Assembly (NCBI RefSeq): GCF_003966335.1
Contig: NZ_CP034549.1
Location: 1,740,001 to 1,772,000, forward strand
Source: Nonlabens ponticola
GTDB taxonomy: Bacteria > Bacteroidota > Bacteroidia > Flavobacteriales > Flavobacteriaceae
Direction of reading: 5' to 3'
DNA: 32,000 nt
Positions 4,079 through 32,000 of this stretch are shown in pieces; position 1 is the first letter of the stretch; each line of letters begins with the position of its first letter. The notes under the pieces were generated by a model that was not told where the DNA came from, ran no database searches, and worked only from the letters and a program-made list of their open reading frames with translations. Made by a program: the position numbers and the translations under genes.

Positions 4079-4152
4079 CGGGATGTAGCGCAGCCTGGTA
4101 GCGCGCGCGCATGGGGTGCGTGAGGTCGCAGGTTCAAATCCTGTCATCCCGA
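4079..4152 (+). tRNA. tRNA-Pro (anticodon GGG)
   Basis: Hand-folded cloverleaf. Acceptor cgggatg/catcccg, D-arm gcgc-agcctggta-gcgc, anticodon arm cgcgc-atGGGgt-gcgtg, T-arm gcagg-ttcaaat-cctgt, discriminator a. It is 74 nt and CCA is not encoded. Confidence 0.9.
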
Positions 4153-8402: not shown

Positions 8403-11096
8403 ATGAGTAAAGAAAACCTAGAACAAGAAAATAACAATTTGCCGATAGAGGAACAGGCAACCGAAACCATCACACGTGTTACCGGCATGTATAAGGAATG
8501 GTTTCTGGATTATGCCAGTTATGTAATCTTAGAGCGTGCCGTACCGGCAATCGAGGACGGTTTTAAACCAGTACAGCGCCGTATCATGCAATCTATGAAA
8601 GATCTTGATGATGGTCGCTATAATAAGGTAGCCAATATTGTAGGTCACACCATGCAATATCACCCGCATGGTGATGCGTCCATAGGCGACGCGATGGTGC
8701 AGATAGGGCAGAAAGACTTGCTCATAGATATGCAGGGAAATTGGGGTAATATACTAACCGGTGATCCATCGGCTGCCTCGCGATATATTGAGGCACGATT
8801 ATCTAAGTTTGCCCTAGAGGTACTCTTCAATGCCAAAATTACCGAGTGGCAATCCAGCTATGACGGTCGCCGCAAGGAGCCCATCAATCTACCGGTAAAA
8901 TTCCCATTGCTACTCACTCAAGGCGCCGAAGGTATTGCCGTGGGTTTGAGTACCAAAGTCTTGCCACATAACTTCAACGAGATTATCGATGCCAGTATCA
9001 AGCACCTGCAAGGCAAGCGATTTAAGTTATTTCCAGATTTCCCAACAGGTGGTGAGGCAGATGTTTCCAATTATAATGATGGCATGCGTGGCGGCAAGGT
9101 GCGCGTACGTGCCAAAATGCACTCGCCAGACCGCAATACAATCATCATTACTGAGATCCCGTATTCCACGACTACTGGATCACTTATTGATTCTATCCTT
9201 AAAGCCAACGATAAAGGCAAGATCAAGATCAAAAAGATCGAGGATAACACCGCTGCAGATGTAGAAATTCAAATTCACTTGCCAGCAAACATCTCACCAG
9301 ACAAAACAATGGATGCGCTGTATGCATTTACAAATTGTGAGGTAAGTATATCGCCACTAGGTTGTGTGATTGAGGATAATAAACCACTTTTTGTAGGTGT
9401 TACAGAGATGCTGCGCCGCAGCACTGATCACACAGTAGAATTGCTACGTCAAGAATTACAAATCCAGCTGGATGAAGTCGAGTCTCAATGGCATTTTGCT
9501 TCACTGGAACGTATTTTTATTGAGAACCGTATCTATCGCGATATCGAGGAAGAAGAAACTTGGGATGGCGTGATCAATGCGATTGACAAAGGCCTCAAGC
9601 CACATATTGGACATTTAAAAAGAGCCGTCACGGTTGATGACATTGTGCGATTGACAGAAATACGCATCAAGCGCATATCAAAATTTGATATAGACAAGGC
9701 ACAGCAAAAGATTGAAGCACTTGAAGATCGCATAGCAGAACTCAAGAAAAATCTAGAGCATCTCATTGAATTTGCCATTGACTATTTCAAAAAGCTCAAG
9801 ACTGATTACGGCAAGGATCGTGGTCGCAAGACAGAGCTCAAGGCTTTTGAAGATATAGTCGCCAGTAAGGTGGTCATTAGAAATACAAAACTGTACGTCA
9901 ATCGTGAAGAAGGCTTTATAGGTACCAGTCTAAAGCGTGATGAATATGTCGCAGACTGTTCGGATATTGATGATATTATCGTTTTCACCAAAAGTGGAAC
10001 CATGATAGTCACTAAGGTTGATGCCAAGACTTTCATAGGTAAAGGCATCTTGCACGTGGCTGTTTTCAAGAAAAAGGACAAGCGCACGATCTATAATCTT
10101 ATTTATAGAGACGGTAAATCAGGACCTAGTTATGTCAAGCGATTTGCCGTGACCAGTATGACCCGTGATCGCGAGTATAGTGTTGGTAATGGCAATCCAG
10201 GAACACAGGTACATTATTTTAGTGCCAATCCTAATGGAGAGGCAGAAGTTGTGACCATTCATTTGAGACAACAAGGCAGCATCAAGAAACTGAAATGGGA
10301 TCTTGATTTCAGCGATATACTGATTAAGGGTCGATCGTCTAAGGGAAATCTGGTAAGCAAATACAGCATCAAACGTGTTGAACTAAAAGAAGAAGGCGTG
10401 AGTACGCTCAAACCACGTAAAATCTGGTTTGACGATACTGTACAAAGACTTAACGTTGATGGTCGTGGCGAACTACTGGGTGAATTTAAAGGAGAAGATC
10501 GCCTACTTATCATTAATCAAAAAGGAGTGGTGCGCACTATTATTCCAGAGGTTACTGCGCGATTTGATGAAGACATGATCGTATTAGAAAAATGGCAACC
10601 TAATAAGCCGATAAGTGCGGTTTACTTTAATGGTGAACGCGACTTATTTTACGTCAAGCGATTCTTGGTCGAGAATGAAGACAAGGAAGAACTATTCATC
10701 ACAGAGCATGATAATAGTTACTTAGAAGTGGTTTCTACAGATTATAAACCTGTCATAGAGTTGATTCACAACAAACCACGTGGCAAAGAGCAACCACCTA
10801 ATGAAGAAGTAGAGTTAGAGGAATTTATCGCTGTCAAAGGAATAACGGCACAAGGAAACATGCTGACCAAAAGCAAGATCAAGCAAATCAACCTGCTGGA
10901 TCCATTGCCACATGAGCCTGAACCAGAGATCGATCAAGAAGAACAAGCCGAACCTCAGGATGAAGAAAGTGAGTCTAATGTTGCTGATACTTCTCAATCT
11001 GAAAGTAGCACTGCGAATACTATTTCAGTAGATAAGCCGCAGGAAAGCAAGGACGATGATCCTAAGGGTGATGGCGAGCAAGGCAGTTTGTTTTAA
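8403..11096 (+). CDS. parC: DNA topoisomerase IV subunit A
   Basis: 897 aa. DGFKPVQRRIM, the HPHGD motif and the active-site region SRYIEARL are all present. It has an acidic low-complexity C-terminal tail. Confidence 0.88.
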   Translation: MSKENLEQENNNLPIEEQATETITRVTGMYKEWFLDYASYVILERAVPAIEDGFKPVQRRIMQSMKDLDDGRYNKVANIVGHTMQYHPHGDASIGDAMVQIGQKDLLIDMQGNWGNILTGDPSAASRYIEARLSKFALEVLFNAKITEWQSSYDGRRKEPINLPVKFPLLLTQGAEGIAVGLSTKVLPHNFNEIIDASIKHLQGKRFKLFPDFPTGGEADVSNYNDGMRGGKVRVRAKMHSPDRNTIIITEIPYSTTTGSLIDSILKANDKGKIKIKKIEDNTAADVEIQIHLPANISPDKTMDALYAFTNCEVSISPLGCVIEDNKPLFVGVTEMLRRSTDHTVELLRQELQIQLDEVESQWHFASLERIFIENRIYRDIEEEETWDGVINAIDKGLKPHIGHLKRAVTVDDIVRLTEIRIKRISKFDIDKAQQKIEALEDRIAELKKNLEHLIEFAIDYFKKLKTDYGKDRGRKTELKAFEDIVASKVVIRNTKLYVNREEGFIGTSLKRDEYVADCSDIDDIIVFTKSGTMIVTKVDAKTFIGKGILHVAVFKKKDKRTIYNLIYRDGKSGPSYVKRFAVTSMTRDREYSVGNGNPGTQVHYFSANPNGEAEVVTIHLRQQGSIKKLKWDLDFSDILIKGRSSKGNLVSKYSIKRVELKEEGVSTLKPRKIWFDDTVQRLNVDGRGELLGEFKGEDRLLIINQKGVVRTIIPEVTARFDEDMIVLEKWQPNKPISAVYFNGERDLFYVKRFLVENEDKEELFITEHDNSYLEVVSTDYKPVIELIHNKPRGKEQPPNEEVELEEFIAVKGITAQGNMLTKSKIKQINLLDPLPHEPEPEIDQEEQAEPQDEESESNVADTSQSESSTANTISVDKPQESKDDDPKGDGEQGSLF

Positions 11097-14647: not shown

Positions 14648-15121
14648 ATGGCCAAGATTGATGACATTGATAAGCAAATACTCGATGTGTTAATTGAAAA
14701 TACAAGAACTCCATTTACAGATATTGCCAAACGGCTCAATATTAGTGCAGGAACGGTACACGTGCGAGTGAAGAAGATGGAAGAGTCAGGAATCATTCAC
14801 GGTTCTTCATTAACGGTAGATTACAAACAACTAGGCTATAATTTTATTGCGTACATAGGCGTCTATCTAGAAAAGACTAGTCAGACACAATTTGTATTGG
14901 GCCGCATAAAGGAGATTCCTTATGTTACAGTTGCCCATATCACGACAGGTAAATTCAACATCTTCTGTAAGATAAGAGCAAAGGACACTACTCACGCCAA
15001 GAAAATTATTTTCATCCTCGACGATATAGAAGGTGTTAACCGCACAGAGACTATGATAAGTCTTGAGGAAAGTATCAATGATAAGAAGCGATTGCTGCAC
15101 AAGGTTTTTCAAGACCTATAA
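14648..15121 (+). CDS. Lrp/AsnC-family transcriptional regulator
   Basis: DKQILDVLIENTRTPFTDIAKRLNISAGTVHVRVKKMEESGII is the HTH, followed by a C-terminal RAM-like domain. Confidence 0.9.
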   Translation: MAKIDDIDKQILDVLIENTRTPFTDIAKRLNISAGTVHVRVKKMEESGIIHGSSLTVDYKQLGYNFIAYIGVYLEKTSQTQFVLGRIKEIPYVTVAHITTGKFNIFCKIRAKDTTHAKKIIFILDDIEGVNRTETMISLEESINDKKRLLHKVFQDL

Positions 15122-15637
15122 ATGATATTTAGAAGAGATATCCAGCCGCGAGAATATGCGGCCTATTATGAGCCTTACATAAATACTGTTTCTGGGGACA
15201 CAACAATGGTAGATGCTCTAGAATCGTCTTTAGTAAGCTGCTCCACAATACTTCAAGACATCATCAAACCTATGGATTATCGCTACGGCGATGATAAATG
15301 GACGATAGGACAATTGGTCTCGCATTGCATAGATACTGAGCGTATTTTCAATTATCGAGCACTTGCTTTTTTGAGAGATGATGCAGCCATGATTCCTGGT
15401 TTTGATCAGGATATTTATGCCAACAGTTTGAACGATTATGCTTTCGCGAAAGCGGAACTACTAAAATCCATGAAGGTGGTAAGAGCTGCAACGCTAGATT
15501 TATTTACTACTGCAAACCCTATGGCGATGCTCAAAACAGGTGTTGCTAGCGACAATATAATGTCAGTGAGAGCTATACCATTTATAATAGCAGGACATTA
15601 CAACCACCATTTCCATATTTTGAAGGAGCGTTATTAA
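15122..15637 (+). CDS. DinB-family protein
   Basis: 171 aa, starting 1 nt after the Lrp stop. Histidine-containing four-helix pattern (SHCIDTERIF ... AGHYNHHFHIL). It contains an in-frame GCTTTCGCGAAAGC copy at 15440-15453. Confidence 0.7.
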   Translation: MIFRRDIQPREYAAYYEPYINTVSGDTTMVDALESSLVSCSTILQDIIKPMDYRYGDDKWTIGQLVSHCIDTERIFNYRALAFLRDDAAMIPGFDQDIYANSLNDYAFAKAELLKSMKVVRAATLDLFTTANPMAMLKTGVASDNIMSVRAIPFIIAGHYNHHFHILKERY

Positions 15638-15752
15638 CGCGAATTAAGACTTGCTAGAAGATTTTACCTATTCCCTAAGTATTTCTTCCGTTGCCTTTAA
15701 CCCTTCTAAGTCCTTTTGTTTTAGAAATTTGGAACATCTAAAAATTAAAATC

Positions 15753-16298
15753 ATGAAAAAGGTAGCTATACTAGCCACAAATGGCTTTGAAGAAGTAGAA
15801 TTGACCAGCCCAAAAGAAGCGCTTGAGAGTAAAGGCGTCGCTGTACACATCATAAGTCCAGAAAAGGGCGAGATCAAAGCATGGAAAGATGGTAATTGGT
15901 CTAAATCATACAAAGTTGACAAACAGGTCGAGGAAGTAAGTGCTACTGACTACAATGCCTTGTTGCTACCTGGTGGCGTGCTCAATCCCGATCAGTTGAG
16001 GCAAGATGCAAAATCCATCGATTTTATCAAAGATTTTTTCAAGCAAGGAAAACCAGTGAGCGCTATATGCCATGGCTTACAAACCCTAATCGATGCTGAC
16101 GTATTAAAAGGTAGAAAGGTGACTTCTTTTCCTTCAATTAAAAAAGATCTTGAAAATGCAGGCGCACATTGGGTTGATGAAGAAGTAGTGGTGGATTCAG
16201 GATTCACCACAAGTAGAACTCCAGACGATTTACCAGCCTTCAACAAGAAAGTGGTTGAGGAAGTTATGGAAGGAAAGCATGAAGAACAACATGCATAA
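15753..16298 (+). CDS. DJ-1/PfpI-family (type 1 glutamine amidotransferase-like) protein
   Basis: ATG at 15753 gives MKKVAILATNGFEEVE. The nucleophile elbow AICHG is present. The track start at 15651 is an upstream extension. Confidence 0.85.
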   Translation: MKKVAILATNGFEEVELTSPKEALESKGVAVHIISPEKGEIKAWKDGNWSKSYKVDKQVEEVSATDYNALLLPGGVLNPDQLRQDAKSIDFIKDFFKQGKPVSAICHGLQTLIDADVLKGRKVTSFPSIKKDLENAGAHWVDEEVVVDSGFTTSRTPDDLPAFNKKVVEEVMEGKHEEQHA

Positions 16299-16319
16299 AA
16301 ATTGAATTGATATCAAATA

Positions 16320-16345
16320 AAAGGCTCGCAATTGCGAGCCTTTTT
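16320..16345. terminator. Bidirectional terminator between convergent genes
   Basis: aaaaggctcgc-aatt-gcgagccttttt. Confidence 0.65.
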
Positions 16346-16367
16346 ACATCTATAAAATGCTAATCAC

Positions 16368-17483
16368 TTATTGATTCAGCATTACTGGCATAACTAGCAT
16401 GGTGACGTTTTCACCTTCTTCAAGTCCGTCAACCGGTGTCAAGATTCCTGCGCGATTAGGCAAGGACATTTCTAGCGAGACATCGTCACAAGTCAAGTTG
16501 TTGAGCATCTCAATCAAGAATCTACTATTGAAGCCTATTTGCATGTCATCACCTTGATAATCGCAGGTCAGGCGCTCATCTGCCTTATTACTGTAGTCTA
16601 GATCTTCTGCAGAAATGTTCAATTCTGCACCAGCCATTTTAAGGCGTATCTGGTGTGTCGTTTTATTAGAGAAGATACTAACCCTGCGTACTGAGTTTAA
16701 GAACTGTGTACGTGATATCGTGAGTTTGTTAGGGTTCTCCTTAGGAATTACAGCTTCATAATTAGGATATTTACCATCTATCAATCGGCAGATGATCGTT
16801 GTATTCTCATAGGTGAATTGAGCGTTGCTCTCATTGTATTGAACAAGAACTTCAGCTTCATTACCTTGAAGTATAGACTTGAGAATGTTTAATGGCTTTT
16901 TAGGCATGATAAATTCTGCCGTGTCTTGAGCACTCACGTCTTCTCGTCTATAGCGTACTAGCTTGTGTGCATCGGTAGCTACAAAGGTCAATCCATCGCT
17001 CGCAAATTGAAAAAACACACCGCTCATCACTGGTCTTAGGTCATCATTACCAGCAGCAAATATCGTTTTATTGATCGCTGTTGCTAGCGTGTCACCCATA
17101 ATCGTAGTGCTGCTAGGATCTGTAAGAGTTACTGTTTTAGGAAATTCCTCAGCAAGCGCACAGGCAATCTCTGACTTACCTTTATCATGACTCACAGTCA
17201 TCATATTATCTTCACTGTGAAAGGTAAGCGGCTGCTCTGGAAATGTCTTGAGTGTATCTAGAAGTAATTTTGCTGGAACCGCAATGTTTCCATCGTCCTG
17301 GCTCTCCACTTCTAATCTAGTGGTGATTGTCGTCTCCATGTCAGATGCTGACACCTTTAACTCACTACCTTTTAACTCTAGTAAAAAATTGTCTAGGATA
17401 GGTAAGGTGTTGTTATTATTTATCACGCCACCTAACAGCTGTAGATTTTTTTGTAAGTAAGAACTAGAAACAATAAACTTCAT
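16368..17483 (-). CDS. dnaN: DNA polymerase III beta subunit (sliding clamp)
   Basis: 371 aa. The N-terminus MKFIVSSSYLQKNLQLLGGVI...NTLPILDNFLLEL and the C-terminal end MLVMPVMLN are typical of DnaN. Confidence 0.95.
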   Translation of the reverse strand: MKFIVSSSYLQKNLQLLGGVINNNNTLPILDNFLLELKGSELKVSASDMETTITTRLEVESQDDGNIAVPAKLLLDTLKTFPEQPLTFHSEDNMMTVSHDKGKSEIACALAEEFPKTVTLTDPSSTTIMGDTLATAINKTIFAAGNDDLRPVMSGVFFQFASDGLTFVATDAHKLVRYRREDVSAQDTAEFIMPKKPLNILKSILQGNEAEVLVQYNESNAQFTYENTTIICRLIDGKYPNYEAVIPKENPNKLTISRTQFLNSVRRVSIFSNKTTHQIRLKMAGAELNISAEDLDYSNKADERLTCDYQGDDMQIGFNSRFLIEMLNNLTCDDVSLEMSLPNRAGILTPVDGLEEGENVTMLVMPVMLNQ

Positions 17484-25363: not shown

Positions 25364-26794
25364 ATGCTCAGAGTAGTTAAACATATTCTTATTAAGTCAA
25401 AGGAGTACACGCTGATTGCATTTTTTCTCATGTCCACTAATGCACTAGCACATATCTCTGAAGCGCATGAACGCATAGAAAAGGAGGCATATAAACTATT
25501 GATAGAGCAAGAAGCTACTGAAAATCATCCAGATGGTCTTAGCATGTTCAACTATTTGGTAGCTCAAAATTATATTAAAGAATCTGATGAGGCGAGTAGT
25601 GCCTACCCAGATCTAGACTTGAGTCGTCAATTTCTTTCTGATAGACAGATTTATCATTTTATGGCAAGTAGTCGCTATGTAATGCAAGCGCTACGTCGTT
25701 ATGATAACATAGATGAGCAGCAACATTATATTATCAGTAAAGCATTGCCAGAATGCATCAATCTGCTATACACCTTGACTCGTGAGACGATTGATAATCC
25801 AACTGGAGCCAATCAAGCAGGTCGCGGCATATACGTGTTGATGCACGCCATCACTGATTCCTATTCTAGGGAGCATACGATAAGGCAACCTATTACTCAC
25901 AACATTCAAAATATTAAAAGTTGGAAACTGTCACGTCTATTTTGGCCAGAAGTAGCCAAGTTGAAGGCTGATAACTCAAATGATGAAGTTGAGACCTTGG
26001 TGTTTCTTCACTCTATTGAGGGCAAGGCAGATGCAGAATGGGTCGACGAAGAAGGAAATTTAAATGAAGAAGCAAAAGCAGCGGTAAATGCTATAAAAGA
26101 GCTGCTAATTATCATTTACCAAGCAACACAAAATAAAGCTGAGGTAGATTCATTGATCACTTCTTACATAGGCAAACATTTTCAGCCAGTTGGTGCGGTG
26201 GTGAATGACCAACAATTTGTCTTTGAGACTGAGAATACGACTATGGATTTGAGTTATGAAGATGGATATTTTGATAATTCAAATGTTCTAGAGTTAGACC
26301 GCTATCCACATTACTCACATATGCTTACTTTTCAAAATGGATTATCCCAAATTGAAAGACCATCTTTTGGGTATGAGTTAGGTATTCACATATCGCCCAG
26401 AGCTGCATTTTCCTCAACATCCTTTTTCCAGAGACTGCCTTACGGCATTGTGATAGGAATCAATGAGAATACTGATATTTTACCAGATGCATCGCTAGTA
26501 GAATCCTTACAATTCAAAGCCGCTGCCAAGGTGATGTTTTATCTACCGCTGCGCAATTTGGTACTGGAACCCAGATTAGGATTGGGAATGACGCCTCTCA
26601 ATTCTAATGACAACAACCTTGGCTTACTTACGGGCTTTGATGTGGCATTCAATCTAGGTAGAGACAATAATCGCCAACGAACCAAACGTTTCTCCATAGG
26701 CTATGAGTACGATGCTTCTGGACTTCATTCTTACAACAGTATTTTGTTGAAAGCAGGTTTCAATAATTGGCAAGGGCGAGTTGTAAAGAAGTAA
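25364..26794 (+). CDS. Secreted protein: N-terminal phospholipase C / P1-nuclease-like zinc-site motifs, C-terminal beta-rich region
   Basis: Signal peptide ends ...NALA|HISEAH. The motif MHAITDSYSREH (H-x3-D-x5-H) has the spacing of the zinc ligands H118/D122/H128 of B. cereus PLC and H116/D120/H126 of P1 nuclease. Function is tentative. Confidence 0.45.
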   Translation: MLRVVKHILIKSKEYTLIAFFLMSTNALAHISEAHERIEKEAYKLLIEQEATENHPDGLSMFNYLVAQNYIKESDEASSAYPDLDLSRQFLSDRQIYHFMASSRYVMQALRRYDNIDEQQHYIISKALPECINLLYTLTRETIDNPTGANQAGRGIYVLMHAITDSYSREHTIRQPITHNIQNIKSWKLSRLFWPEVAKLKADNSNDEVETLVFLHSIEGKADAEWVDEEGNLNEEAKAAVNAIKELLIIIYQATQNKAEVDSLITSYIGKHFQPVGAVVNDQQFVFETENTTMDLSYEDGYFDNSNVLELDRYPHYSHMLTFQNGLSQIERPSFGYELGIHISPRAAFSSTSFFQRLPYGIVIGINENTDILPDASLVESLQFKAAAKVMFYLPLRNLVLEPRLGLGMTPLNSNDNNLGLLTGFDVAFNLGRDNNRQRTKRFSIGYEYDASGLHSYNSILLKAGFNNWQGRVVKK

Positions 26795-26826: not shown

Positions 26827-26893
26827 CTGTAACGACTGTTGCCAAGCAAAAGCCCGATTTTTAAATATTATTTTCTCATATACAATGTTGTTT
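26827..26893 (-). repeat. Degenerate or truncated terminal attC-like remnant
   Basis: ctgtaac...gttgttt ends. The inner part gccaagcaaaagcccgatttttaaatattatttt resembles gccacaagccagatttttaaattttactattt inside the 27552-27749 repeat. The left L-box arm is not recognisable. Confidence 0.35.
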
Positions 26894-26907
26894 ATAGTAC
26901 TTACACG

Positions 26908-27534
26908 TTAACTTGTTGTATAATAGTTTATTAATAACTTGTCATCATTCCGCCATTCTAGCCAACCTTTTATTTTCCGTCCATTTTCACAATGTTCGCC
27001 TGTCTCAACTTCAATCCAATCATTCTGCATTCGTATTACGGTGAAACAGTCCTCTTTAGAACCCAATTTTACTATTTCTGAATTCGTAAATGGTTTTGAA
27101 TAAATATTCTGTGTGTTTTTATCAACTCTTTCAATGCTAAACATATTTTGAAGATATTCTTCCCACGTGTGAAATTCAATGTAATCTGTATTCTTTATCC
27201 ACATGGTTTTAGTGTCTGAAACATAAATTTCAAAACAGTCAGTTTCATTCGTTTTAGTCCTGAACGAGAATTGGTGATAATCTAACCATAACGATTCTGG
27301 CTGCAGCCATTGTTGTTGATTCTCCAAGTCTTTAATATTCCAACTATTGATAGACTCGTCTTTGAAGAACTCAATAGTTTTCACTTTTTTATTTAAATCT
27401 GAACCCTCGTAAAAGTCTATTAACGTGTTGTTGTTGTTGTTGAAATTTATTGAGACAATTCCGATTCCTAACTCACTTTGGGAAAGAGAAGTTAATGATA
27501 CTAAATTTAAAACTAATAATATTATTATTCTCAT
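26908..27534 (-). CDS. Cassette ORF: secreted protein of unknown function (possible SH3b-like C-terminus)
   Basis: ATG at 27534 gives MRIIILLVLNLVSLTSLSQ. The C-terminal CFTVIRMQNDWIEVET...IKGWLEW is SH3b-like by eye. The track start at 27555 is a GTG inside the attC. Confidence 0.55.
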   Translation of the reverse strand: MRIIILLVLNLVSLTSLSQSELGIGIVSINFNNNNNTLIDFYEGSDLNKKVKTIEFFKDESINSWNIKDLENQQQWLQPESLWLDYHQFSFRTKTNETDCFEIYVSDTKTMWIKNTDYIEFHTWEEYLQNMFSIERVDKNTQNIYSKPFTNSEIVKLGSKEDCFTVIRMQNDWIEVETGEHCENGRKIKGWLEWRNDDKLLINYYTTS

Positions 27535-27551
27535 TGGTTTTTTCGCATTAT

Positions 27552-27749
27552 GCACAACGGTCTTGTGTATGGCTTGTTGCGTGCAAATTAGCGATTAATT
27601 TTCGGTTGAGCCACAAGCCAGATTTTTAAATTTTACTATTTATCTTTTTTCTTGGAAATCGTCAAATTTAAAAATTTGGCGACTTTCCAAATATACCTTA
27701 ACTTTGGTTTAAGCAACTGATTAGCAATGAGCTATACACGTTGTTGGCA
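27552..27749 (-). repeat. attC-like site (long variant, 198 nt)
   Basis: gcacaac-ggtctt-gtgtatggcttgttgc ... gcaatgagctatacac-gtt-gttggca. The internal hairpin is ggaaatcgtcaaattt/aaatttggcgactttcc. Confidence 0.65.
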
Positions 27750-27757
27750 AACGTTTT

Positions 27758-28351
27758 TTAGTCAATTCCTAAATCATTTGTTATTGAGTGTTCCAATTTT
27801 ATTTCGCTAATTGGTATTCCCAAGTTTTTGTTTATTATTCCAATTACAATTCGCTCAACCACGTATTTGTCCGTTATTTTTTCAATATCAATCAGTTTTT
27901 CTTGGTTCAAAGCGATTGTCCAGTCAACTAATTCGCGCAAAGTTCCGCTCGAAACAGGCGTGGTTCGTTTAATCGTTTTAATTCCAAAAATTTTGACGTG
28001 AGAACCTAATTCCGGATTAAAATCAAGTGCAACCAATTCAGGCAAATCAAGTCCGATTTCGGTTTTTAGTAGATGCCAATTTTCTTTCAATTCCGTTTGA
28101 GTGAGCAATTCCGATATTTTGGTTTCGGGTTTGATTTCTTTTTCGGTCAAATTTAAGTTCCGAAATGCTTTTCTAATTCGATAAAAGACAATTTGGGTTA
28201 AGCATTTTTCATTCGGATTGGTGATTATTTTACTGTAAACACAATCCACAAAATTTTGAACGGTATAAATCTTTTCCGCTTCGGAATCCTCAATTCGTAT
28301 TCCAAATTTGTCTTCAACTGACATCAATAATTCAACGGAATCTAATCCCAT
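27758..28351 (-). CDS. Cassette ORF: acyl-carrier-protein-like (PP-binding-like) repeats in a shifted phase
   Basis: The N-terminus [38 protein letters not shown] aligns by eye to E. coli ACP [41 protein letters not shown]. The C-terminus [32 protein letters not shown] aligns to ACP helix I plus the DLGAD motif. Start is ATG at 28351, or TTG at 28357. Confidence 0.55.
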
Positions 28352-28372
28352 TCTCAATTTGGTTTAAATGTT

Positions 28373-28504
28373 TGCCAACGGTTTCGGCTATGCGCAGTTG
28401 CGTACCTTATCCTTGTCTATCCAAATATACCCAAACCGTAGAAAATTTCGCAGAGATTTTCGTCTGAGCAAGAACCAAGCAATTGCGTATAGCCCTTGTT
28501 ACCA
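28373..28504 (-). repeat. attC-like site (132 nt)
   Basis: tgccaac-ggtttc-ggctatgcgcagttgc ... gcaattgcgtatagcc-ctt-gttacca. The central hairpin is gaaaatttcgcagagattttc. Confidence 0.7.
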
Positions 28505-28510
28505 CACGTT

Positions 28511-29155
28511 TTATTCGCGTTGAAATTTCTTTTCGACGCTCAACTTAGCTATCAAATCTTCTGCTTTCTTATTCAGCTTTACAATAGGTAGTTCTTGGTT
28601 GTATTCGTAATTTAAATTTGGTTTTGAGATGAACGAAGTGCTATCTATTGACGTTGTCAAGTCAAATTTATCAAAATCCGAGGTATAATTCTTATTCTCT
28701 GCTGTGAACCAATAATATCTTAAAGGCTGATGTGTAACAGTTGTGTATTCATTTTCGCCTATTTGATATTGTTTAACTTCCGAGATGATAATTTCTTGCT
28801 TGTTATCTAGATAGTATTCTAATGGCTCTGATTGCGAAAGTTTAATTGGTTCAAATTTTCCGCAGTTATCAAATTTCTGAATGAAGTTTGATTCATTTTT
28901 GTTCCAGAATGCAAAGAGCTGGTAATAGGTTCTCTTTGGCAGGCAAACTTTCTTTTTCGAATATCCTTTTTTTATGAATGTTATAGTCCCGTATTGAATG
29001 TATTGTACAATGAAATAGTCTTTGACGCCCATTTCCTTCATCGATGATTGAATTTGAGAAATATGCTCCATAGCATCTAAGTCGGTGTTATTAATGTTAG
29101 AAGTTTTACAGCTAACAAGTAATAAGATTAATACTGTAGTGATTAAATGTCTCAA
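28511..29155 (-). CDS. Cassette ORF: lipoprotein of unknown function
   Basis: The TTG start at 29155 is the only start codon after the upstream in-frame stop. The signal is (M)RHLITTVLILLLVSCKTS (lipobox). Confidence 0.55.
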   Translation of the reverse strand: MRHLITTVLILLLVSCKTSNINNTDLDAMEHISQIQSSMKEMGVKDYFIVQYIQYGTITFIKKGYSKKKVCLPKRTYYQLFAFWNKNESNFIQKFDNCGKFEPIKLSQSEPLEYYLDNKQEIIISEVKQYQIGENEYTTVTHQPLRYYWFTAENKNYTSDFDKFDLTTSIDSTSFISKPNLNYEYNQELPIVKLNKKAEDLIAKLSVEKKFQRE

Positions 29156-29167
29156 TGTCCAAATGTG

Positions 29168-29299
29168 TGGTAACGGTCTTGTATAAGAATAGTGCGGTTT
29201 TGTGTGCGAGGATTTTCCGAAGGAAAATCAGACGTAACAAAATTGCACTAACCTTTGATTAAGCACTAAACTACGCATTATTTTTATACGTTGTTGTGT
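29168..29299 (-). repeat. attC-like site (132 nt)
   Basis: tggtaac-ggtctt-gtataagaatagtgcg ... cgcattatttttatac-gtt-gttgtgt. The central hairpin is gattttccgaaggaaaatc. Confidence 0.7.
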
Positions 29300-29306
29300 G
29301 CAGTTT

Positions 29307-29765
29307 TTATTGTTTTAATCTTTCATTTTTTAATTCTTTCATATCATAAACATTAACTCCAAGAGCTCTAGCATAGTCAGATAGAGCGGAGTCTGATGTT
29401 ATGAGCATTTCGCAATCTTTGGCACATTCTAAAATCAGCGTATCTGCAAGTCCGAGGTCATAAAATGAATAATTGTTTTCAACCATTTTAGATTCAAGAT
29501 ACTTTTCGGAAGTTATTTTAATTGTTTCGATTATTCTTTTTACATATAATTCTTTTTGACTACCTGTGAACTTATTAAGTAAATTGTCAACTTCAGTCCA
29601 GATATTTGGAAGAACTACTATTGATTCTATTTTTTTAATTGCAGAAACTAAATTATGAAAATCTTCCTCTTCATAAATAGACGTTTTACTGTGCTTATTT
29701 ATTAAAGCAGGATTCATTAATCCTAATATTAAAACTAAAAGAGAGTTAGAATCTATTAAAATCAT
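29307..29765 (-). CDS. Cassette ORF: PIN-domain nuclease (VapC-like toxin candidate)
   Basis: The four acidic PIN positions appear in context: ILIDSN, WTEVDNL, GLADTLILE and LITSDSAL. It is 152 aa. Its ATG shares 1 nt with the upstream stop (TAATG). Confidence 0.65.
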   Translation of the reverse strand: MILIDSNSLLVLILGLMNPALINKHSKTSIYEEEDFHNLVSAIKKIESIVVLPNIWTEVDNLLNKFTGSQKELYVKRIIETIKITSEKYLESKMVENNYSFYDLGLADTLILECAKDCEMLITSDSALSDYARALGVNVYDMKELKNERLKQ

Positions 29766-30034
29766 TACTTTTCATAGATATAAAATCCAATAACATTTTT
29801 TTCATTGTCTATTTTTACTTTCTTATAAATTCTATGATATGTAAATCCAGATGTCAAAGCTCCTAGTGGAGACGTTGGTTTATTTGTGTTTTCGACTAAA
29901 TATGAAACAACAATTTCCCAAATTTTTTCCTCTTTTTGATATTCAGCTTGTTCTAATCTGAAATCTGAATTGTCAAGTGATGAAAGTCCTGACAATTCAG
30001 TTTTAGCTATTTGATATAATTCTTTTAAATTCAT
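29765..30034 (-). CDS. Cassette ORF: 89-aa partner of the PIN gene (antitoxin candidate of unrecognised type)
   Basis: It is translationally coupled upstream of the PIN gene within the same cassette. No RHH, AbrB or Phd-like motif is visible. The pattern W-EIVVSY...KKVKIDNEKNVIGFYIY is PepSY-like by eye. Confidence 0.5.
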   Translation of the reverse strand: MNLKELYQIAKTELSGLSSLDNSDFRLEQAEYQKEEKIWEIVVSYLVENTNKPTSPLGALTSGFTYHRIYKKVKIDNEKNVIGFYIYEK

Positions 30035-30058
30035 ATTGTCTTTGGTTTGTCAAATTGC

Positions 30059-30190
30059 ACACAACGGTCTCGGCTATGAGTAGTTGCGTGGGTTAGCCTT
30101 GTTTTCTCAAATGTACCCAACCCGTAGAAAATTTCGTAGAAATTTTTGGATGACCACAAACCGAGCAATTGTGTATAGCCCGTGTTGTAA
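30059..30190 (-). repeat. attC-like site (132 nt)
   Basis: acacaac-ggtctc-ggctatgagtagttgc ... gcaattgtgtatagcc-cgt-gttgtaa. The central hairpin is gaaaatttcgtagaaatttt. Confidence 0.7.
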
Positions 30191-30199
30191 AACGTTTAT

Positions 30200-30802
30200 T
30201 TAGTAGCAATGAAGCGTTCGATGTTCCTCTTCTTCGTGATAATTTATTTCGCCACTAATAGCGTCGATTAGTAGTATTTCATCCTTTGAATAACATTTCT
30301 CCTCGTAAAGCGTGTTGAAAACTTTCCATTCATATTTGTCAGTATGAATATTCCACTCCAATCTCATTGTTATAGGCGATACAGCTTTCTTTAATTTTAT
30401 TTTCGATACGATGTTTTCGACTTGTTTTTTGGTCAGAAAATTTGAGTTTTCATTTTTGAGCAAATATTCCGGTATTCGCTCATCAAAATACATATCAATA
30501 AATTTCAATGAGGTATCAAATTCCATATAAACTCCAAGATGTACATTTTCGAACGTGAAATTTGGATGGTTTAAATCATATAAAACTTCATATCTATCAA
30601 AAGGCGAAGAAATCACATCTAAGCTATCAGTTTTGGCTAGCCGAGACTCTTTATCTAAACTGAAGTATTCAATTAAATGTTTTCCGAAATGGGCATTTAA
30701 TACACTATCTGCTTTCACTAAAATTTGAGAGGCAGTATGATTTTGACCATTGCCATGGTAAGCCATTGAAACAAAAAAGAAAAATGTAATTAAAGGTTTC
30801 AA
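30200..30802 (-). CDS. Cassette ORF: secreted protein of unknown function (PepSY-like C-terminal pattern)
   Basis: TTG start at 30802, 11 nt from the attC edge, with no other start after the upstream stop. Hydrophobic N-terminus KPLITFFFFVSMAY. The C-terminal YEWKVFN...EILLIDAISGEI resembles PepSY. Confidence 0.5.
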   Translation of the reverse strand: MKPLITFFFFVSMAYHGNGQNHTASQILVKADSVLNAHFGKHLIEYFSLDKESRLAKTDSLDVISSPFDRYEVLYDLNHPNFTFENVHLGVYMEFDTSLKFIDMYFDERIPEYLLKNENSNFLTKKQVENIVSKIKLKKAVSPITMRLEWNIHTDKYEWKVFNTLYEEKCYSKDEILLIDAISGEINYHEEEEHRTLHCY

Positions 30803-30813
30803 TTCTAAATGTT

Positions 30814-30944
30814 TTACAACGGTCTCAGCTATGAGTAGTTGCGTGGTTTAGCACTTAACTTTGCAAGTACACACCTAACTGAAAATCCGCGAGGATTTTC
30901 AGAAGTAGGCGAGAACCAGCAATTACTTATAGCCATTGTTGTAC
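30814..30944 (-). repeat. attC-like site (131 nt)
   Basis: ttacaac-ggtctc-agctatgagtagttgc ... gcaattacttatagcc-att-gttgtac. The central hairpin is ctgaaaatcc-gcg-aggattttcag. It is nearly identical to the site at 31753-31883. Confidence 0.75.
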
Positions 30945-30951
30945 ACAGTAT

Positions 30952-31734
30952 TTATTTACTTAATTCTATTTGAAATTTTGTCGCATTAAATGCTGCTTGC
31001 AAACCTCTTAAATTTGTTTCAGATTTATTTTGTTCAAATAATTCAGCCAAGTATTCAGCTTGTTTGGTCACATTATCATTCTCCTTTTTAAATATTTGAT
31101 ATTTTAAAAGAATCAAATTCGCCATGATTTTATCTGAAATAGTTATATCACCTTGGTTTAGGTATTCCTTTATTGTACTTCCTATCTCGGAATCGTTTTC
31201 AGATAGTTCATCGAATAAGTAAGCATTAGCCAAGTCAGATTTATTCATAGTTGAGTAATCGTTTTGGTCAGACATATCTTTTCGGTAAGTCATTTTGTTG
31301 CCATTTAGAAAATACCATCTGGTGTAAGAATCATTTTCCATTTTGATTTCTTTTTCAAAAGCTTTTTTCTTTACAGTCCAATTTGTGAAAGCAATCAAAA
31401 GTTCAGTTCCGTCATCTTTCTTTAATATGGTAAATCGAATCAAGTAATTTCTTTTCCCTGGTTTTTCAATTTCGATGTCTAATTTATTTTCTACAGAAAC
31501 ATATTTTTTCAATGCTTTTAGAACTGATGAAACATCTTCAGGACTTGCTTCAGGAAATAAGTTTTCTCTTAAAAACAAATCAATGTATAAGTAATGAGTT
31601 AAATAAAAATCATCCATTTTCAGATAATTCGCCTCTGTCAAATGTTCGGTTTTGATATTGATTTTGTCTGATTGAGAATATCCAAAATTTGTGAATATTG
31701 CTAAAAGTAAAAGTGTGATTATTTTTCTGTTCAT
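30952..31734 (-). CDS. Cassette ORF: secreted protein of unknown function
   Basis: ATG start and signal peptide MNRKIITLLLLAIFTNFGYSQ. It is 260 aa with no recognised motif. Confidence 0.55.
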   Translation of the reverse strand: MNRKIITLLLLAIFTNFGYSQSDKINIKTEHLTEANYLKMDDFYLTHYLYIDLFLRENLFPEASPEDVSSVLKALKKYVSVENKLDIEIEKPGKRNYLIRFTILKKDDGTELLIAFTNWTVKKKAFEKEIKMENDSYTRWYFLNGNKMTYRKDMSDQNDYSTMNKSDLANAYLFDELSENDSEIGSTIKEYLNQGDITISDKIMANLILLKYQIFKKENDNVTKQAEYLAELFEQNKSETNLRGLQAAFNATKFQIELSK

Positions 31735-31752
31735 TCTGTTGGGTTATATTGT

Positions 31753-31883
31753 GTACAACGGTCTCGGCTATGAGTAGTTGCGTGGTTTAGTACTTAACTT
31801 TGCAAGTACACACCAAGTTGGAAATTCCGCAGGAATTTCAAAAGTAGGCGAGTAGAAGCAATTACTTATAGCCATTGTTGTAT
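31753..31883 (-). repeat. attC-like site (131 nt)
   Basis: gtacaac-ggtctc-ggctatgagtagttgc ... gcaattacttatagcc-att-gttgtat. The central hairpin is ggaaattcc-gc-aggaatttc. Confidence 0.75.
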
Positions 31884-31891
31884 GCTGGCTT

Positions 31892-32000
31892 TTAAAGTCT
31901 CATCATTACCTCCGTTAATTTATTTTTTCTAATTTTCCATTGAAATTCTCTTAACTCCTCTATTTCAATGTTGCCATCTTTCGCTTTTAAAGTTTCAATG
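31892..32000 (-). CDS. Cassette ORF, 3' end only (the gene continues beyond the right edge)
   Basis: This is the only minus-strand frame open from 32000 down to the TAA at 31894-31892. My own translation ends ...IETLKAKDGNIEIEELREFQWKIRKNKLTEVMMRL*. The stop lies 8 nt from the attC edge, as in the other cassettes. Confidence 0.45.
   Translation of the reverse strand, partial: IETLKAKDGNIEIEELREFQWKIRKNKLTEVMMRL

Follow-up and report, generated by a model that had tools for sequence, protein, structure and literature searches.

A chromosomal gene-cassette array in Nonlabens ponticola that probably belongs to an integron-like gene-capture system of Bacteroidota

In the integrons of the Treponema denticola type, known as inverted integrons, integrase gene and cassettes share one direction of transcription, the integrase keeps the additional domain of IntI proteins and the sites are detected as attC. 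Xer recombinases use duplex core sites of about 28 bp, and the pdif modules of Acinetobacter plasmids are gene modules bounded by recombinase sites that lie in alternating orientation and are served by the host XerC/D. Integrons are abundant in Gammaproteobacteria and nearly absent in Bacteroidetes, Firmicutes and Alphaproteobacteria, and surveys with IntegronFinder found in Bacteroidetes only In0 elements and a single integron in Salinibacter (PMC9024848). A 2024 preprint treats Bacteroidota as a clade without integrons, while reviews, one of them from 2021 (PMC8618304), count them among the phyla that have them. This patchy distribution is an open puzzle, on which a system in Bacteroidota would bear. 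Here we analyzed a stretch of 32,000 nucleotides (nt) of Nonlabens ponticola (contig NZ_CP034549.1, positions 1,740,001 to 1,772,000 of the forward strand), called the window below, together with related loci cited by their L numbers, and we consider it likely that window positions 26827-32000 are the distal part of a chromosomal cassette array, one instance of an integron-like gene-capture system widespread in Bacteroidota. Our literature search turned up no account of these arrays in Flavobacteriia or Bacteroidota, most subscription journals lying outside its coverage.

The array in the window consists of six full repeats (123-190 nt) and one decayed copy, and each interval between repeats is taken up by one open reading frame (ORF) on the minus strand or by a pair of 152 and 89 amino acids (aa), an arrangement that a first, sequence-only reading of the window had described and that the ORF map bears out. 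The repeats lie where that reading placed them once its coordinates, which include 4 flank bases per side, are converted to the AAC-to-GTT spans used here, and the AAC-to-AAC spacings along the window (725, 821, 795, 891, 755 and 939 bp) agree with those it listed. It was likewise correct on the layout, i.e. AAC, a 6-nt spacer, a 16-nt arm, a variable part, the other 16-nt arm, a 3-nt spacer and GTT. Stop codons of the cassette ORFs lie about 7-12 nt from the GTT side of one site and start codons about 12-25 nt from the AAC side of the next. A cassette consists of a single promoter-less ORF unit and, on its 3' side, an imperfect palindrome of 123-200 nt. When the bottom strand of this palindrome folds, AAC pairs with GTT to close the structure, and an unpaired spacer, a stem of 16 bp and a variable top come next. 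A covariance model, R1, built from 60 non-redundant relatives of the repeats, gave the six window repeats scores of 58-109 bits, with E values from 1e-11 down to 6e-24 and all matches on the + strand, and detected no further site in the other 26.8 kb of the window. The absence of copies outside the array indicates that the repeats are not scattered elements of the repetitive extragenic palindrome (REP) or miniature inverted-repeat transposable element (MITE) kind, a generic family that the sequence-only reading had asked to be checked.

The flanks of the sites locate the likely crossover. Writing each site as n10..n1-AAC…GTT-m1..m10, we compared the m flank of site k with the n flank of site k+1 in 302 adjacent pairs from 122 sequences. 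The two flanks are 89-95% complementary at positions 1-6, 71% at position 7 and 86-90% at positions 9-10, with a fixed wobble at position 8, whereas m and n flanks of the same site or of random sites are complementary at about 35%. The four nearest positions all pair in 83% of cassettes versus 7-9% in controls. All five complete junctions of the window show nine Watson-Crick pairs and the wobble over 10 nt; the left flank of the site at 28377 (aatgtttgcc), for example, pairs with the right flank of the preceding site (ggcaaacgtt). Given that the complementarity follows the cassettes and not the repeats, we infer that the crossover lies inside AAC/GTT at the ORF-distal end of the site, as in integrons, and that an excised circle would consequently rebuild a paired site from its own two 10-nt flanks.

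Cassettes found in more than one genome agree with these boundaries. A copy of the cassette at 30818-31760, about 99% identical, is part of an array in assembly GCA_001306415.1 that is unrelated in its other content; the homology ends 0 and +3 nt from the respective AAC triplets. For other cassettes common to genomes, the breaks fall 0 to -5 nt from AAC(k) and +2 to +25 nt from AAC(k+1). Breaks at AAC were what the sequence-only reading had proposed to look for in related genomes, together with cassette turnover, which we saw at the attI-like site of relatives (below). Of 12 ORF modules common to genomes, five keep the same 3' site and none keeps the same 5' site, the background rate being 5.5%, indicating that the unit is an ORF with its 3' site, as in integrons. 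Three sets of loci (L006/L047/L056, L085/L106 and L055/L107) carry the same ORF and both 10-nt flanks around inner repeats that are only 51-65% identical, indicating that inner sites and ORF modules sometimes reassort. Differing inner sites might in part be explained by occasional top-strand events that move the crossover to the other box, a possibility that we raise by analogy with attC mutants without extrahelical bases, in which top-strand events shift the crossover in this way (PMC2727003).

The features of the array, in order along the window, are as follows.
26827-26899, + strand: decayed terminal attC-like site, with AAC at 26831-26833, GTT at 26887-26889 and a 10-nt flank.
26908-27534, - strand: cassette ORF of 208 aa with a signal-peptide-like N-terminus; no Pfam or PADLOC match.
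27556-27745, + strand: attC-like site of the long type, 190 nt (R1 58 bits, E 1.4e-11); copies in other genera are 91-95% identical.
27758-28351, - strand: cassette ORF of 197 aa with a partial acyl-carrier-like PP-binding match (PF00550, E 3.7e-6).
28377-28500, + strand: attC-like site, 124 nt (R1 103 bits).
28511-29155, - strand: cassette ORF of 214 aa with a lipoprotein-like N-terminus (…LLVSC); no family match.
29172-29295, + strand: attC-like site, 124 nt (R1 96.6 bits), with flank pairing.
29307-30034, - strand: two-gene cassette, in which an 89-aa ORF (29765-30034) overlaps a 152-aa, weakly PIN-like ORF (29307-29765).
30063-30186, + strand: attC-like site, 124 nt (R1 90.6 bits), with flank pairing.
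30200-30802, - strand: cassette ORF of 200 aa if it starts at TTG; signal-peptide-like, no family match.
30818-30940, + strand: attC-like site, 123 nt (R1 109 bits), of a subtype 92-97% identical in many genera.
30952-31734, - strand: cassette ORF of 260 aa, which with its 3' site at 30818-30940 is the cassette shared with GCA_001306415.1.
31757-31879, + strand: attC-like site, 123 nt (R1 109 bits).
31892-32000, - strand: 3' end of a further cassette ORF (stop codon 31892-31894), which runs off the window end.

The decayed copy, a 67-nt remnant, keeps both ends and part of a long-type interior that resembles the interior of the 27556 repeat, and has lost its 5' stem arm. It is not detected by R1, and only 6 of 10 positions of its flank are complementary to the flank of the next repeat. 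It forms the distal end of the array, 36 nt past the stop codon of a 476-aa chromosomal gene (25364-26794), and we expect the array to continue past base 32000 toward its head, where a recombinase would lie on the minus strand. Pfam searches of the window cassettes gave only the partial PP-binding match and a weak PIN match in the 152-aa ORF (PF01850, E 5.6e-4), which falls below the Pfam cut-off; PADLOC gave no defence match among them. Of the cargo named by the sequence-only reading, the signal-peptide-like and lipoprotein-like N-termini stand, while the PIN assignment is weak, and the 89-aa and 152-aa ORFs are a possible antitoxin/toxin pair. A scan of the window with Rfam matched no family to the repeats; its sole match was a tRNA gene at 4079-4152 (RF00005, 59.8 bits), unrelated to the array.

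Loci related to the array revealed what may drive it. A tblastn search over about 130 loci with IntI1 as query (100% identical to annotated intI1 genes and a full match to NF011946) found tyrosine recombinases in 11 pattern-derived loci, and in 8 of the 11 the gene stands at the array head, on the cassette strand and one cassette length before the first site. Conversely, when homologues of 375 aa were picked regardless of repeats (Cellulophaga algicola DSM 14237, a second Cellulophaga strain, Formosa, Maribacter and a Logan contig), all five were followed by an array of short unannotated ORFs separated by sites of the family. No sites were found upstream of the recombinase, with 0 R1 matches in about 10 kb upstream in L122-L125, and all sites of any one array point the same way. 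About 40 nt past the recombinase stop codon the relatives carry a perfect small hairpin with A(A/G)TTGTT after it, which we call the attI-like site. Between two Cellulophaga strains the identity is 99.6% across the 11 kb that lead to this GTT, 42 nt past the recombinase stop codon, and the sequences beyond it are unrelated; a Maribacter pair (L125 and L126) shows the same pattern, diverging after the GTT. Strains can thus have the same recombinase, identical in sequence, and yet differ in their first cassette. For 5 of 6 first cassettes, reverse complementing the flank that follows the attI-like GTT gives, with the wobble, the flank that precedes the site of that cassette, which is the signature of an insertion of the attI x attC type.

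The recombinase at the array head of relatives is a Xer-like tyrosine recombinase of 375 aa with an extra N-terminal domain of roughly 105 aa. Five proteins scored 148-210 bits with TIGR02249 (cut-off 265), matching in two stretches around a gap, and 80-161 bits with NF011946 (cut-off 435), as compared with 509 and 800 bits, respectively, for the IntI1 control; their best family was NF040815, the XerA type, at 192-243 bits. For the 375-aa recombinase the ranges were 187-210 bits with TIGR02249 and 210-243 bits with NF040815. Alignment with IntI1 by BLASTP (30% identity) showed that about 40 residues are missing between KDR and HxLRH, the place of the IntI-specific domain. The closest structures by sequence are of the XerA type (4a8e, E 2.9e-46; also 5hxy), followed by VchIntIA (8e-34) and XerD. 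A predicted structure (mean predicted local distance difference test score 76) fits XerA and VchIntIA about equally, and its beta/alpha N-terminal domain, of roughly 75 residues in the model, matched no relative in the structure comparison. The sequence-only reading had anticipated, beyond the window, a divergently oriented recombinase with the IntI-specific insertion next to an attI site. In relatives, neither trait of the enzyme was found, since the array-head gene is co-oriented with the cassettes and its product, below the TIGR02249 cut-off, is without the insertion; the attI-type site was recovered, in related loci, as a hairpin and GTT with turnover next to the recombinase.

At the positions below, the array-head recombinase is preceded, at a distance of about 90 nt, by a divergent conserved gene of about 126 aa. 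Its product has an N-terminal zinc ribbon (CxxC…CxxxC) with a weak DUF2116 match and may play a regulatory or accessory part in the system.
L093, 3436-3810, divergent: zinc-ribbon gene.
L122, 9535-9915, divergent: zinc-ribbon gene.
L124, 9529-9909, divergent: zinc-ribbon gene.
L125, 9531-9908, divergent: zinc-ribbon gene.
L126, 660-1037, divergent: zinc-ribbon gene.
L127, 6336-6725, divergent: zinc-ribbon gene.

The sites form a family of their own. A degenerate 27-nt pattern derived from the repeats and run against species-representative genomes matched at least 120 stretches, which among the matches listed are all from Bacteroidota, mainly Flavobacteriaceae and also Saprospiraceae, Sphingobacteriales, Cytophagales and Prolixibacteraceae. 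With nhmmer we counted 470 copies, spread over 122 sequences, and an 8-kb block usually contained several of them. AAC is present in 424 and GTT in 426 of 427 mapped repeats, and the base after AAC is always G, as it is in most canonical attC sites (PMC2727003). The base adjoining AAC/GTT is Y/R in 98-99% of copies, so that YAAC/GTTR is conserved, and the next three positions do not fit the YYY/RRR of the RYYYAAC/GTTRRRY boxes. Inward, unpaired spacers of 6-7 nt on one side and 3 nt on the other lead to the 16-bp stem, and the interior varies from about 60 to 130 nt. In 96 copies less than 85% identical to each other, the stem is paired at 92%, with compensatory changes in 13 of its 16 pairs; its covariation score is 0.423 versus 0.113 for shuffles, none of 500 of which reached it, and 0.05-0.12 for slid partners. 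Individual repeat subtypes, traced from the repeats at 30818-30940 and 27556-27745, are 92-97% identical across genera, families and even orders beside differing cargo, a conservation far above what a constraint on the stem alone would need. One subfamily also carries a Bacteroidetes-type -7 motif, TAnnTTTG, at repeat-strand positions 30-39 (64 of 418 repeats; for instance, window 30851-30858); it is antisense to the cassettes and fixed in position, may simply be part of the inner hairpin and, being restricted to that subfamily, was ruled out as a general family feature.

Two stem positions are fixed as G·T instead of Watson-Crick pairs, position 7 (85 of the 96 copies) and position 12 (77 of 96), and flank position 8 is a fixed T·G (262 of 303). 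All three wobbles lie on the same strand, and the complementary strand therefore has A·C mismatches at these places, which is why the repeat strand folds better: it is the more stable of the two in 92% of 359 unique repeats, by a mean of -2.7 kcal/mol with DNA parameters, and R1 scores 109 bits on it versus 22 bits on the opposite strand. This better-folding strand, the + strand in the window, is the one opposite the cassette ORFs, i.e. the 'bottom' strand of integrons, and the longest ORF lies opposite the repeat strand in 88% of 303 units (median length 841 bp). In canonical attC sites strand choice is set by extrahelical bases on the R''-L'' arm (PMC2727003). The main class of the sites described here has none, its arms being of equal length; a minority has one extra base, on the arm opposite to the canonical one. 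The asymmetry of the sites suggests that the three wobbles mark the correct strand instead of extrahelical bases.

Homologues of the recombinase (about 40% identity) are also encoded on Bacteroidota plasmids, and R1 sites follow the cassette genes on a 15-kb plasmid of Chondrinema litorale (L127) and a 66-kb plasmid of Chryseobacterium sp. SNU WT5 (L128), platforms that may be mobile counterparts of the chromosomal arrays. Their cassettes encode a GNAT acetyltransferase, a sigma factor, SDR, Crp/Fnr and RidA proteins and a metallophosphoesterase. Both plasmids, and one further locus, carry group II introns.
L127, about 8650-10462, - strand: group II intron (Rfam RF02001/RF00029, ltrA).
L128, about 14690-16542, - strand: group II intron (Rfam RF02001/RF00029, ltrA).
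L063, 5630-6783, repeat ('bottom') strand: group II intron (Rfam RF02001/RF00029, ltrA).
The two plasmid introns are on the bottom strand between a gene and its site, with the 5' junction …TTGT|GTGTG at the site end, so that the insertion would fall at TTGT|T, which are the strand and position of the group IIC-attC introns of classical integrons (PMC3001079).

Elsewhere, the cargo of relatives includes a Gp49/HTH toxin-antitoxin pair, proteins with TIR and SIR2 domains and repeated DUF6090 genes. In the Formosa array (L124, 11315-19893), DUF6090 paralogues occupy 6 of 9 visible cassettes, two by weak matches, indicating that within this array the genes were duplicated or captured more than once. 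The Maribacter platform has a relaxase and an IntDOT-like integrase just upstream and a DDE transposase inside its array (L125, 4367-8538 and 16193-17734), and the array of GCA_001306415.1 abuts an rve transposase at a contig end (L001, 1-830). Arrays often sit on short contigs, which suggests that assemblies break at the repeats.

Taken together, complementary flanks, shared cassettes and turnover support the core proposal of the sequence-only reading, an integron-type array with its own attC-like family in Flavobacteriia. As a working mechanism we propose that the dedicated 375-aa Xer-like tyrosine recombinase, placed at the array head and co-oriented with the cassettes, would insert circular cassettes at the attI-like hairpin and GTT about 40 nt past its own stop codon, and that cassettes would be excised by recombination between two sites. 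The substrate would be the folded, single-stranded bottom strand, marked by the three G·T wobbles, and cassettes would probably be transcribed by read-through from the recombinase side. Given that the recombinase is without the IntI domain and below the score cut-off, and that the sites are without extrahelical bases, the system is integron-like in function and not a canonical integron. By a modest balance of the evidence we favor the view that it is a second integron lineage in Bacteroidota, independent or very anciently diverged and missed by standard tools. This view takes in jointly an IntI-domain-free Xer-like recombinase with a new N-terminal domain, a G·T strand code, a cassette-specific 10-bp extension of the R box, occurrence on chromosomes and plasmids in several classes of the phylum, cassette exchange across genera and parasitism by group II introns like that of true integrons.

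Several points weigh against the proposed cassette system. No recombinase lies within the window, so that its array could be an orphan cluster, and single-strand recombination with catalysis by the Xer-like protein is suggested by association and by the asymmetry of the sites. The attI-like hairpin could simply be the terminator of the recombinase gene, and the first cassette of L124, from Formosa, shows no flank complementarity (1 of 6). In about 5 of the 12 shared ORF modules the 3' site differs, which strict units of ORF and 3' site do not predict. Other Xer-like genes occur beside single repeats in layouts that depart from the platform (L073 4700-5776, L090 2540-3677 and L083 2581-4678); two of these recombinases are of 272-289 aa and without the N-terminal domain, and the third is a divergent protein of 376 aa.

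It is improbable, in our estimate, that recombination takes place on duplex DNA at a short core by AAC, in the style of Xer/dif or of the Acinetobacter pdif modules, with the palindrome not serving as a single-stranded substrate. Such a reaction would suit a recombinase that is nearest to the XerA type in sequence and without the domain that IntI uses on folded DNA, and an attI-like site that is a small palindrome resembling a classical core site; directly repeated AAC-proximal cores would, moreover, yield the same cassette boundaries. It leaves unexplained, however, why the GTT-side flank is complementary to the AAC-side flank of the same cassette, why compensatory changes preserve the 16-bp stem and why three G·T wobbles on one strand go with a 92% strand bias in folding energy, and the group II introns, which target single-strand stem-loops, use that same strand. 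Short duplex sites in alternating orientation, as in pdif modules, are not what the arrays contain, their sites being co-oriented structured palindromes of 123-200 nt.

An ordinary integron, or a cluster of attC sites lacking an integrase (CALIN), would have divergent but true attC sites and a canonical IntI beyond the window or elsewhere in the genome. The shared geometry (AAC-G…GTT, unpaired spacers, bottom-strand bias, ORF-distal crossover and a site 3' of the ORF) and the place of Bacteroidota in the 2021 review speak for it, yet we consider it decidedly improbable: the IntI1 search over the roughly 130 loci gave only insertion-less recombinases below the TIGR02249 cut-off, the arrays are consistently headed by the Xer-like gene, the IntegronFinder surveys cited above recovered next to nothing in this phylum, the sites have no extrahelical bases and R1 detected none of the six class 1 attC sites of plasmid pXD35001 (best 8.6 bits). 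That the repeats are structural elements between genes (REP/MITE-like, terminators or antisense RNA genes) and not recombination sites is very improbable and largely refuted, for although they are structured, lie between ORFs, have G·U-type wobbles that would suit an RNA of the + strand and carry the promoter-like TAnnTTTG at a fixed position in 64 of 418 copies, they are confined to the arrays (0 copies in 26.8 kb of the window and in about 10 kb upstream of the recombinase in L122-L125), match no Rfam family, have flanks whose complementarity tracks cassettes and not repeats, border identical cassettes that occur in unrelated arrays with breaks at AAC and give way to new content abruptly at the attI-like GTT between near-identical strains. 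Readings as REP/MITE elements, a CRISPR-like array, tandem paralogues or RNA elements were rejected.

If the integron-like system is real, hairpin-based cassette capture would not be tied to the IntI-specific domain, and the system would offer a natural comparison for the essential features of attC recognition. Marine Flavobacteriia and the plasmids of Bacteroidota would also turn out to hold a large stock of mobile genes that lack annotation, and tools for finding integrons would have to be given another site model and another recombinase profile. How cassettes and their sites arise might be easier to explain with the help of the complementary flanks specific to each cassette.

Set beside canonical integrons, such as class 1 and the Vibrio superintegron, the Bacteroidota arrays are alike in that each cassette has a single ORF, mostly without a promoter, and 3' of it an imperfect palindrome that folds. 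The palindromes have ends of the form AAC-G…GTT, central spacers that stay unpaired, a variable terminal structure and a better-folding bottom strand. In both, the crossover lies in the ORF-distal AAC/GTT, the outer half of a site belongs to the neighbouring cassette, attI ends in GTT beside the recombinase gene, the cargo is mostly of unknown function with toxin-antitoxin-like pairs and bottom-strand group II introns sit between gene and site. They differ in the recombinase, which in Bacteroidota is without the IntI-specific domain, scores below the cut-off, carries an additional domain at its N-terminus and is encoded in the direction of the cassettes, and in the sites, which are longer (123-200 nt), have a 16-bp stem with G·T wobbles in place of extrahelical bases, conserve only YAAC/GTTR and extend the R box by 10 cassette-specific complementary nt, the attI-like site being a perfect small hairpin. 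The inverted integrons of the Treponema denticola type share the direction of the recombinase gene with the Bacteroidota arrays and differ by their integrase, which has the IntI additional domain. To the XerA/XerC/XerD resolvases the likeness is in the catalytic core, closest to XerA by sequence and fold; unlike Xer and pdif sites, those of Bacteroidota are long hairpins of a single orientation with strand-specific wobbles, served by a dedicated, array-linked recombinase. Archaeal IntIs are reported to have retained the additional domain specific to IntI, with attC sites that fold in the canonical way (Ghaly et al. 2022, PMC9668308), both of which the Bacteroidota system is without; the two are alike as integron-type systems outside the classical proteobacterial range, and both protein groups bear the NCBI name 'site-specific tyrosine recombinase/integron integrase'.

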